NCBI GenBank assembly: GCA_905178155.1
Contig: CAJINV010000005.1
Coordinates: 1,046,564 to 1,110,563, forward strand
Origin: Amoebophrya sp. A120
Lineage: Eukaryota; Protista; Dinoflagellata
Length of the DNA stretch: 64,000 bases
Direction: 5' to 3'
Position 1 is the first letter of the stretch. Each line of letters begins with the position of its first letter. Made by a program: the position numbers and the translations under genes. This document shows, one piece after another, positions 12,707-15,330 of the stretch. Below the pieces are notes generated by a model. The model was not told the origin of the DNA and did not search any database. It saw only the letters and a program-made list of their open reading frames with translations.

Positions 12707-15330
12707 ATGGCCACAAAGAACGTGCAATTTGAGGTGACGGGGAGCAAGCCTCCCGCCCCGAAGCCGATGAAGAAGCAATTGTGGTCTCTGAATCCGGACC
12801 GCTACGACATCGATACGGTCATCGGGACGGGGTCCTATGGTAAGTGGAAGTTTATGGATCCTGGATGAAGATCGCAAGATAGAATTTCTATGCGAGACAT
12901 TCCTCTGTCGTACTACAGGACCGTGCACCAAGAACAGTGGATGGAAGTAAGCCACAGACCACTGCCAAGAGCATATTTTTTCCCACATCCACAACAGGTC
13001 AAGTGTACGGTGCACAGGACAAGTTTACGGGGAAGAAGGTCGCGATAAAGCGGTCGAAGGACGTGTTTGGTGAACTGACGGACTGCAAGCGAATGCTGAG
13101 GGAAATCGCCATACTGAACCGGATCGAGCACAAAAACGTCGTGCACCTGCACGAGCTGTATCTGCTGCCGAACCCTGCAAATTTCACAGAGATCGCCCTG
13201 GTCTTGGAGCAGTGTCAGTTTGATCTAAAGAAGCTGTACTTATTTTTTTGCTGCTATAATGATAATTCTGTTTCATGTATGCTTTTTTCGGTTCTTTCGC
13301 ATGCTGTGATTGTGCCATGTGCATGTCCACCTTCGGGAGCATCTTTCTTGATTAGAGAAACTGAAGCGTTACGAGCCTGTTTCACCAAAATGCACTGGAT
13401 TTTGAATCAGATTCAAATCGACGGAGCAGCTGAATGAAGCAGAATCAAGGACCTTGTTCTACCGGATTTGCTGCGGCGTCAACTACCTCCACTCACAGGG
13501 CGTCTGGCACCGCGACCTGAAACCAGCAAATGTATCATTGAACGATTTTTGCGTGACATATTCTGATTGCATCACACACTATCATTTTTATTTTCCGCTT
13601 GAAAAGGGTACTGTATCGTGCATAAAGATAAAACGCATGTCGAAAACCTACAGATCCTTCTCAACACGGACTGCACGGTGAAAGTGTGCTATCGCAAGAA
13701 AAAAACTGTCTTAGTCTCAACTTGTAATGCCGCGGACATTCTTTTTTCCTTGAGACCACAGGCTTTTGTCATAACATGCTCGACATGCAAGTGCAACCTA
13801 AGTCATCTTTCATTCGTGTTTTCTCTTGCTTCTGGCGCATCATTTCGTCCTGAGCGAATTTGTATTGCCGATTCTGCAAAGGTTTGAGACTGAGACAGTT
13901 TTTTCCTGGGATATGTGCGACTTCGGGCTGGCCCGCGCGGTTGGTCAGGACAACATGTCCCTGCAGATGCTGGAGCAGGGGGCTCAGGATGCACACGTGA
14001 AGCGCGACCTCACCGCCCACGTGGTCACCCGGTGGTACCGCGCGCCGGAGCTGATTCTGCTGCACGAAAACTACACGGAAGCGATTGACGTGTGGAGTCT
14101 CGGGTGCATCCTGTTCGAGGTGATGCTCATGGAAAAGAGATACTGCGAGAAGGCAGACATTCCGAAGAAGCGCGTGCCCCTGTTCCCGGGGGCCTGCTGC
14201 TACCCACTCAGTCCGCGGAAGGACAAGAACGACAATCCGATCGAGGTATAATGGAGATCAGGAGCGATTTTTGCAGTTGCTGCATTTAAACCGTTGTACA
14301 TTTATTTTTTGTTGTGCATAAAGTTAAAGTAGCATACGGAAAAATTCATCTCAGGTCGACCGCAAGCACGTGGACCAGCTGCGCGTGATTTTTGAGCACA
14401 CTGGGACGCCCAGCAAAGCCGACTACGAGTTTTTGAGCAATCCCGACGCTAAGCACTACTTGAAGAAGCACTTTCCCTCAGAGACGGCGAAGAAGCCGAT
14501 CTGGTTTTACCACCGCTTAAACGGCATTGAACCGAAGCTGCACGATCTGCTGTCCAGGTAGAAAGGATAGTAAGTTGTAATTGACGAATTATAGTTGTTA
14601 TACAAAGTTTGCCTACAGAAGTAGAATGAGGAACGAAACGAAATCTGGTGTAGCTGTTCATGCAGGAGTAGATCAAACACTTCTACTTCCAGAAAAACCC
14701 AATAACTCCGCCAGGTTGCTCGTGTTCAACCCGCAGAAACGCATGTCCCTGATGGATTGCATGCACCACGATTTTCTCGCGAAAACGGTCCGCGAAGAGG
14801 AGGCCCGAGGGAACTTTTTGCCGGGCCGGGGGCCGCACCGGGGGGAGGACGTCGATATGATGGACATGAACGGGAACTGCATCGTGGAAAGCATCAAGTT
14901 GCCGTTTCCGGACCACTATCAAATGCAAAAATGTCTGGGTCTGGAAGAATGAAAGATTTATCATGCTTGTCTGGCATGACTGTTAACTCTGTGATGCTTA
15001 GGCGTAAAAAGATCCTCTTGCGTGTCATGCAAAAATGGAGCCTGTCATGCGGAATACGCAACATACAGGAGCTCAAAAACTTGTCATGCTTGGTCACCTA
15101 TATCAGTGAGCTCATTACTGATACAGTCGCATCACAAGTTTCCAGACCCAGACATATTTGCATTTGATAACCACCTGGAGATGAATGAACCGGAGTTGCG
15201 CCAGTACTACGTGTACGGATTGGAAGTGAGACTAAATTTCGTGGAACGCACAGGAGGCAAGCATCGCAGTAAAGGATCCATATTTGCAGTGTTGGAACGC
15301 GGTGGATTTAACTTGTCATGCGAGCAGTGA
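12707..15330 (+). CDS. Atypical alveolate-type MAP kinase (T-A-H activation motif; Plasmodium MAP-2-like); 3' end uncertain
   Basis: Spliced protein [70 protein letters not shown] introns 12840-12997, 13236-13410, 13532-13653, 14246-14354, 14558-14714. TIR elements at 13690 and 14917. Confidence 0.9.
13690..13913. mobile_element. Introner-like TIR element, family C; TSD TGTGC; splits the kinase KVC|DFG
   Basis: Left tatcgcaagaaaaaaactgtcttagtctcaa; right ttgagactgagacagttttttcctgggata. tgtgc at 13685-13689 and 13914-13918. Confidence 0.95.
14917..15169. mobile_element. Introner-like TIR element, family A; TSD ACCAC
   Basis: Left tatcaaatgcaaaaatgtctgggtctggaa; right ttccagacccagacatatttgcatttgata. 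accac at 14912-14916 and 15170-15174. Removing 258 nt gives [15 protein letters not shown]. Confidence 0.95.

Follow-up and report, generated by a model that had tools for sequence, protein, structure and literature searches.

The 224-nt element at positions 13690 to 13913 of the window, i.e. the whole 64-kb stretch of Amoebophrya sp. A120 DNA that was analysed, is real, was correctly described and is already known, as it belongs to a published class of A120 introns and its junction is contained in the deposited gene model. We consider it very probable from the sequence comparisons that this element is an A120 introner in a MAPK2-like kinase gene, likely derived from a non-autonomous DNA transposon and likely spliced as a non-canonical intron, which restores the kinase KVC-DFG junction exactly. 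With the intron class published and the junction deposited, the locus itself adds nothing new. The wider question is by what means introns without GT/AG ends, of which A120 has tens of thousands, are removed while U1 snRNA is undetected, and here the analysis offers a methodological lead: the position of the cut can be fixed from old copies with diverged duplications, but not from perfect ones like 13690-13913.

The element in its kinase gene

12707-15505, + strand: alveolate MAPK2-like kinase gene (456 aa, 9 exons; CAD7949439.1 / GSA120T00011848001)
13685-13689, + strand: duplication TGTGC, left copy, perfect 5 bp
13690-13913, no strand assigned: non-autonomous TIR element (A120 introner), 224 nt, no room for a transposase
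13690-13720, + strand: left inverted repeat (TAT, 7 nt, A-run), fitting the A120 motif in section 11 of PMC7789003
13884-13913, - strand: right inverted repeat, in the RNA a U-run ahead of the 3' end
13914-13918, + strand: duplication TGTGC, right copy, perfect 5 bp
13689-13917, + strand: likely intron, 229 nt, CT...TG, cut one base before and four bases after the element (-1/+4); one of six equivalent placements, suggested by decayed elements and Table S4 of PMC7789003
14917-15169, no strand assigned: second perfect introner of the same gene (intron 7), duplication ACCAC, missing from the deposited protein
15214-15428, no strand assigned: decayed introner (intron 8 of the kinase gene), duplication copies ACGTG / ACGGG

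The exon at 13919-14245 is 100% identical to the A120 protein CAD7949439.1, which maps onto nine exons at 12707-15505 and reads KVC-DFG; two further exons elsewhere in the window also match A120 protein at 100%. The original prediction held all other kinase subdomains to be intact, and the domain is indeed complete, with Pfam Pkinase aligned over 1-263 of 263 and every kinase motif present in the alignment. Named matches include apicomplexan and Perkinsus MAPK2, and the TXY position reads TAH, while TGH occupies it in 90 of 118 pattern-matching homologues. The premise that the spacing between catalytic loop and DFG tolerates almost no indels was borne out: 12 residues separate the catalytic-loop Asn from DFG in 113 of the 120 listed homologues, the other seven being unmatched by the search pattern. 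Where A120 has intron 5, the A25 orthologue (P0003) has an insert of 42 residues that looks like an intron retained in its gene model.

As had been claimed, a TIR element with the target duplication TGTGC lies between the Cys codon (13687-13689) and the DFG Asp codon (from 13919), and thus splits KVC|DFG. Sequence inspection finds TAT as its first bases and ATA as its last, and its GC content is 42%, compared with 52-61% in the neighbouring exons. The terminal inverted repeats pair in 27 of 31 aligned columns, with three mismatches and one gap. According to PMC7789003, A120 introner elements carry inverted repeats in which TAT is followed by seven variable bases and then by three or more A, together with direct repeats of 3-5 nt; the left end of the element matches this motif exactly, the right end has TAT, 6 nt and an A-run (a one-base gap), and TGTGC on both sides provides the direct repeat over the exon-intron boundary in the A120 genome. 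Its TIRs, target duplication, short length and lack of a transposase are those of a MITE or non-autonomous TIR DNA transposon. The first and last 40 nt are predicted to form a stem of 31 pairs, and the fold of the whole element has a z-score of -2.40, with 4 of 200 shuffles equally good. An Rfam search over 12500-15700 returned a single match, far below the cut-off, and none within the element. Within the 64-kb window, its similarity to other elements is confined to the ends, which resemble those of 17275-17484 (15 of 15 and 21 of 25 nt) and of 30759-30967 (70% across 57 nt). The elements at 13690-13913 and 17275-17484 also have in common a left/right difference at inverted-repeat positions 5-9, a possible sign of a subfamily or of polarity.

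Taking out 229 nt gives KVC-DFG at normal spacing, as predicted and as the deposited A120 protein reads, whereas keeping the element leads to a stop after 77 codons, counting from 13654. The claim that removal has to be nucleotide-precise, comprising the element and one duplication copy, is supported by the deposited protein and by all six homologues aligned with it, in which KV/IC-DFG runs uninterrupted by any insertion. Six placements with starts at 13685-13690 yield an identical mRNA, namely TG..TA, GT..AT, TG..TG, GC..GT, CT..TG and TA..GC. None of the six is GT-AG, so that the element, missing from the deposited protein, is an annotated intron with non-GT-AG ends; nor does an AG end occur in any of them, as a canonical U2 (GT/GC-AG) intron would have. 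It appears extremely improbable that splicing uses cryptic GC/GA/GT...AG sites instead, or that the gene is a pseudogene broken by the insertion. In-frame pairs of a G-start and AG do exist, but 0 of 21 restore the sequence, and the nearest, 13673-13898 (GC...AG) and 13669-13894 (GA...AG), lengthen the protein by one residue at the cost of the conserved CTVK stretch, whereas all 113 of the 113 matching homologues have a spacing of 12. A pseudogene is at odds with the intact protein and with an A25 orthologue that is 74% identical.

The deposited proteins stem from a pipeline of transcript and protein alignments from which the longest ORF is chosen, and the deposited protein is therefore no proof of read support at this junction. 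Removal of the element at the RNA level is nonetheless likely, as judged from the deposited model, the homologues and the published class.

Sister elements and the position of the cuts

Among the 26 TAT...ATA inverted pairs of the window, 11 are flanked by a perfect 5-bp duplication, compared with none in each of 30 block-wise shuffles, which contained a mean of 5.2 such pairs apiece. A relaxed scan added two perfect-duplication elements with one end base changed, for a total of 13. Eight of these lie in three genes with deposited proteins (those at 3755, 17275, 23254, 48523 and 48948 were left out), and all eight are missing from these proteins as the element plus 5 nt, covering all length classes modulo 3. 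The transcript-derived homologue P0125 is unbroken over all five such junctions of P0123. Furthermore, 8544-8823 and 31642-31920, which point in opposite directions, share 71.5% identity across 281 aligned columns, and each is removed from a + strand gene; since the same family is removed in both orientations, the symmetric ends are likely the signal. A scan of 80 metagenome loci for an empty site in relatives found no orthologous locus, the best match having 45% identity.

Several further observations were made on inverted elements of the window. The elements at 8544-8823, 31642-31920 and 48523-48801 constitute one family in both orientations, with 31642 and 48523 being 86% identical and inverted. 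At 38654-38825, a TAT...ATA inverted element without matching duplication apparently lies within another intron; it was dropped. The canonical GT-AG intron at 9898-10070 has TAT at +2, ATA at -7..-5 and the flanks GGAGG / CAAGG, which could represent an old, canonicalised introner or chance.

Perfect duplications hide the cut. The original prediction placed the intron at 13689-13917 with CT...TG ends; this is one of six equivalent placements, and although it fits the decayed sisters and the published classes, the decayed sisters equally allow the 0/+5 placement, with one cut directly at the edge of the left inverted repeat and the other behind the complete right duplication copy (TA...GC). Because the six placements are indistinguishable in cDNA, the proposed RT-PCR would confirm the junction, yet not separate CT...TG from the five others. 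Its rank as the best single test case is thus not supported: the cut is hidden among six placements, a published gene model already contains the junction, and the class has been on record since 2021. A better test locus is the last intron of this gene, as its two duplication copies are unequal, and decayed copies with diverged duplications are in general more informative on the cut position than perfect ones.

In that last intron (15214-15428), the left-copy base is kept in the deposited protein, and only -1/+4 (GT...GG) or 0/+5 fit, and the Val kept at this junction is also present in the A25 orthologue. For the decayed element at 6909-7244 (TGCTA / CGGCA), -2/+3, -1/+4 or 0/+5 fit, judged by the deposited protein alone. 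The decayed element at 9426-9609 (AGGTC / CCGTC) is kept as 63 in-frame coding codons in the deposited protein P0121, whose A25 orthologue is devoid of the insert and agrees with the left copy. That P0121 includes these codons probably reflects either a mistake in the annotation or intron retention; as the pipeline kept them as coding, either the models err or some elements are retained. Two decayed elements hence fix the range of placements, while the third merely agrees. Duplication position 5 is equal in both copies of all three, whereas positions 1-4 differ at 6 of 12 sites, so that -1/+4 and 0/+5 are not separated by these elements; two relaxed scans found no decayed element differing at position 5 inside a checked exon.

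What favours -1/+4 is Table S4 of PMC7789003, where all nine predominant A120 non-canonical classes begin with N-T and none with TA. Accordingly, these dinucleotide classes disfavour a TA start, and -1/+4 would in addition make intron 8 GT...GG. Such classes may mirror the preference of the aligner. On balance, a first cut one base ahead of the stem and a second four bases behind it seem probable to us, with some reserve, from the sequence of the decayed copies. The 0/+5 cuts, or alternating placements, are a less likely though serious alternative for the same introner, being allowed by both removed decayed elements and agreeing with the equality at position 5. Figures 3 and S19-S23 of Farhat et al. 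may already show the placement argued here: the legend of Fig. S23 in PMC7789003 gives a distance of 1-5 nt between the A120 repeats and the splice sites, and that of Fig. 3 states that the border position inside the repeat remains unknown.

Possible routes of removal

We propose that a transposase acting in trans would have inserted the element and duplicated TGTGC, that the two element ends would pair into a long stem in the pre-mRNA, and that a relaxed A120 spliceosome would cut where the stem, and not GT/AG, directs it. With cuts at -1/+4, exactly one duplication's worth would go out with the element, and the same geometry at an NNAGG target would produce an ordinary GT...AG intron. A bolder reading, on which we are evenly divided, is that the TAT...ATA stem serves as a ruler fixing the -1/+4 cuts whatever the end bases or the element direction, with a U1-less spliceosome reading structure in place of GT/AG, such that any insertion would become a scar-free intron. 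This could be tested genome-wide via decayed copies and existing RNA-seq. Judged by titles and abstract openings, and leaving aside articles behind subscription (Roy et al. 2023, for instance), the literature search returned no study resolving the A120 splicing mechanism.

End pairing in canonical A120 introns was considered too and rejected: in 12 introns, duplexes of an intron's own ends averaged -10.3 kcal/mol and those of swapped ends -10.9 kcal/mol (permutation p 0.71). The eight perfect elements gave -41.4 for their own ends and -17.1 for swapped ends, a difference that is expected because they were chosen for inverted ends. As the canonical introns of the same three genes display no own-end pairing beyond that of swapped ends, the stem is confined to the elements. 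Many of these canonical introns nevertheless contain a run of T close to their 5' end and a run of A close to their 3' end.

Removal could in principle also occur from the DNA, by IES-like excision in some life stage, or the insertion could be polymorphic, the transcripts deriving from empty alleles. Precise DNA excision has the same geometry, i.e. the element and one duplication copy, and the main text of PMC7789003 uses neither the word 'excision' nor 'RT-PCR'. Against this route, 13690-13913 is present in the genome assembly, 64 kb of which still contain 11 perfect elements, and the deposited proteins also lack elements whose ends have decayed and whose duplications have diverged. Moreover, Amoebophrya is not known to have separate germline and somatic nuclei. 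We therefore rate removal from the DNA as very improbable.

Somewhat more credible, albeit still improbable, is removal at the RNA level without the spliceosome, in which the stem might be processed by a structure-guided nuclease and a ligase, a mechanism suggested for the nonconventional introns of euglenids. Such a route would suit the lack of an AG acceptor in all six placements, the removal of elements in both orientations and the failure to detect U1 snRNA in A120 reported in PMC7789003. The same report nevertheless credits A120 with 83 of 89 spliceosomal proteins plus U2, U4, U5 and U6, and finds the same repeat layout in 15% of A120 canonical introns. The presence of these spliceosomal parts and the shared layout suggest one machine for both kinds of intron.

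Comparison with known introners and other systems

The euglenid nonconventional introns (PMC11282704) likewise have paired ends, non-canonical junctions and duplication-like border repeats. Their stem signature, however, is CAG/CTG at +4..6 and -8..-6, and they belong to another lineage, whereas the stem of 13690-13913 begins at +2 with TAT; by this comparison, the element resembles them in geometry but is not a member. It would share with the introners of Micromonas, Aureococcus and core dinoflagellates (PMC9860276, PMC11282704) the transposon origin, the co-option of splice sites from the duplication and the restored mRNA, but these mostly employ GT/GC donors and AG acceptors, while 13690-13913 has no AG in any placement.

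Closer parallels are found within A120. A 2025 study (PMC12130899) lists 58 A120 families, and most of the 21 rows covered here are of the TIR DNA class with mixed splice-site calls; the automated calls vary among families. The element agrees with these families in its TIR DNA class, many of them have splice sites co-opted from the duplication, and several are 200-280 bp long with TIRs of about 30 bp. The host locus tag was not found in the 12 searched of the 14 supplement files of that study. ORF-bearing A120 families are reported there, while PMC7789003 found no cognate autonomous transposase in A120.

Farhat et al. 2021 (PMC7789003) reported that more than 60% of A120 introns are non-canonical and counted 29,850 introner copies in 1,954 families. 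The element at 13690-13913 corresponds to these introners in organism, in its ends of TAT, 7 nt and an A-run, in the 5-nt direct repeat over the exon-intron boundary, in its non-canonical ends and predicted hairpin, in lacking a transposase and in a length near the 240-nt average. Compared with the introners described in the available text of that article, nothing differs in kind, the inverted repeat being about 31 nt here and 8-20 nt for the exact motif there.
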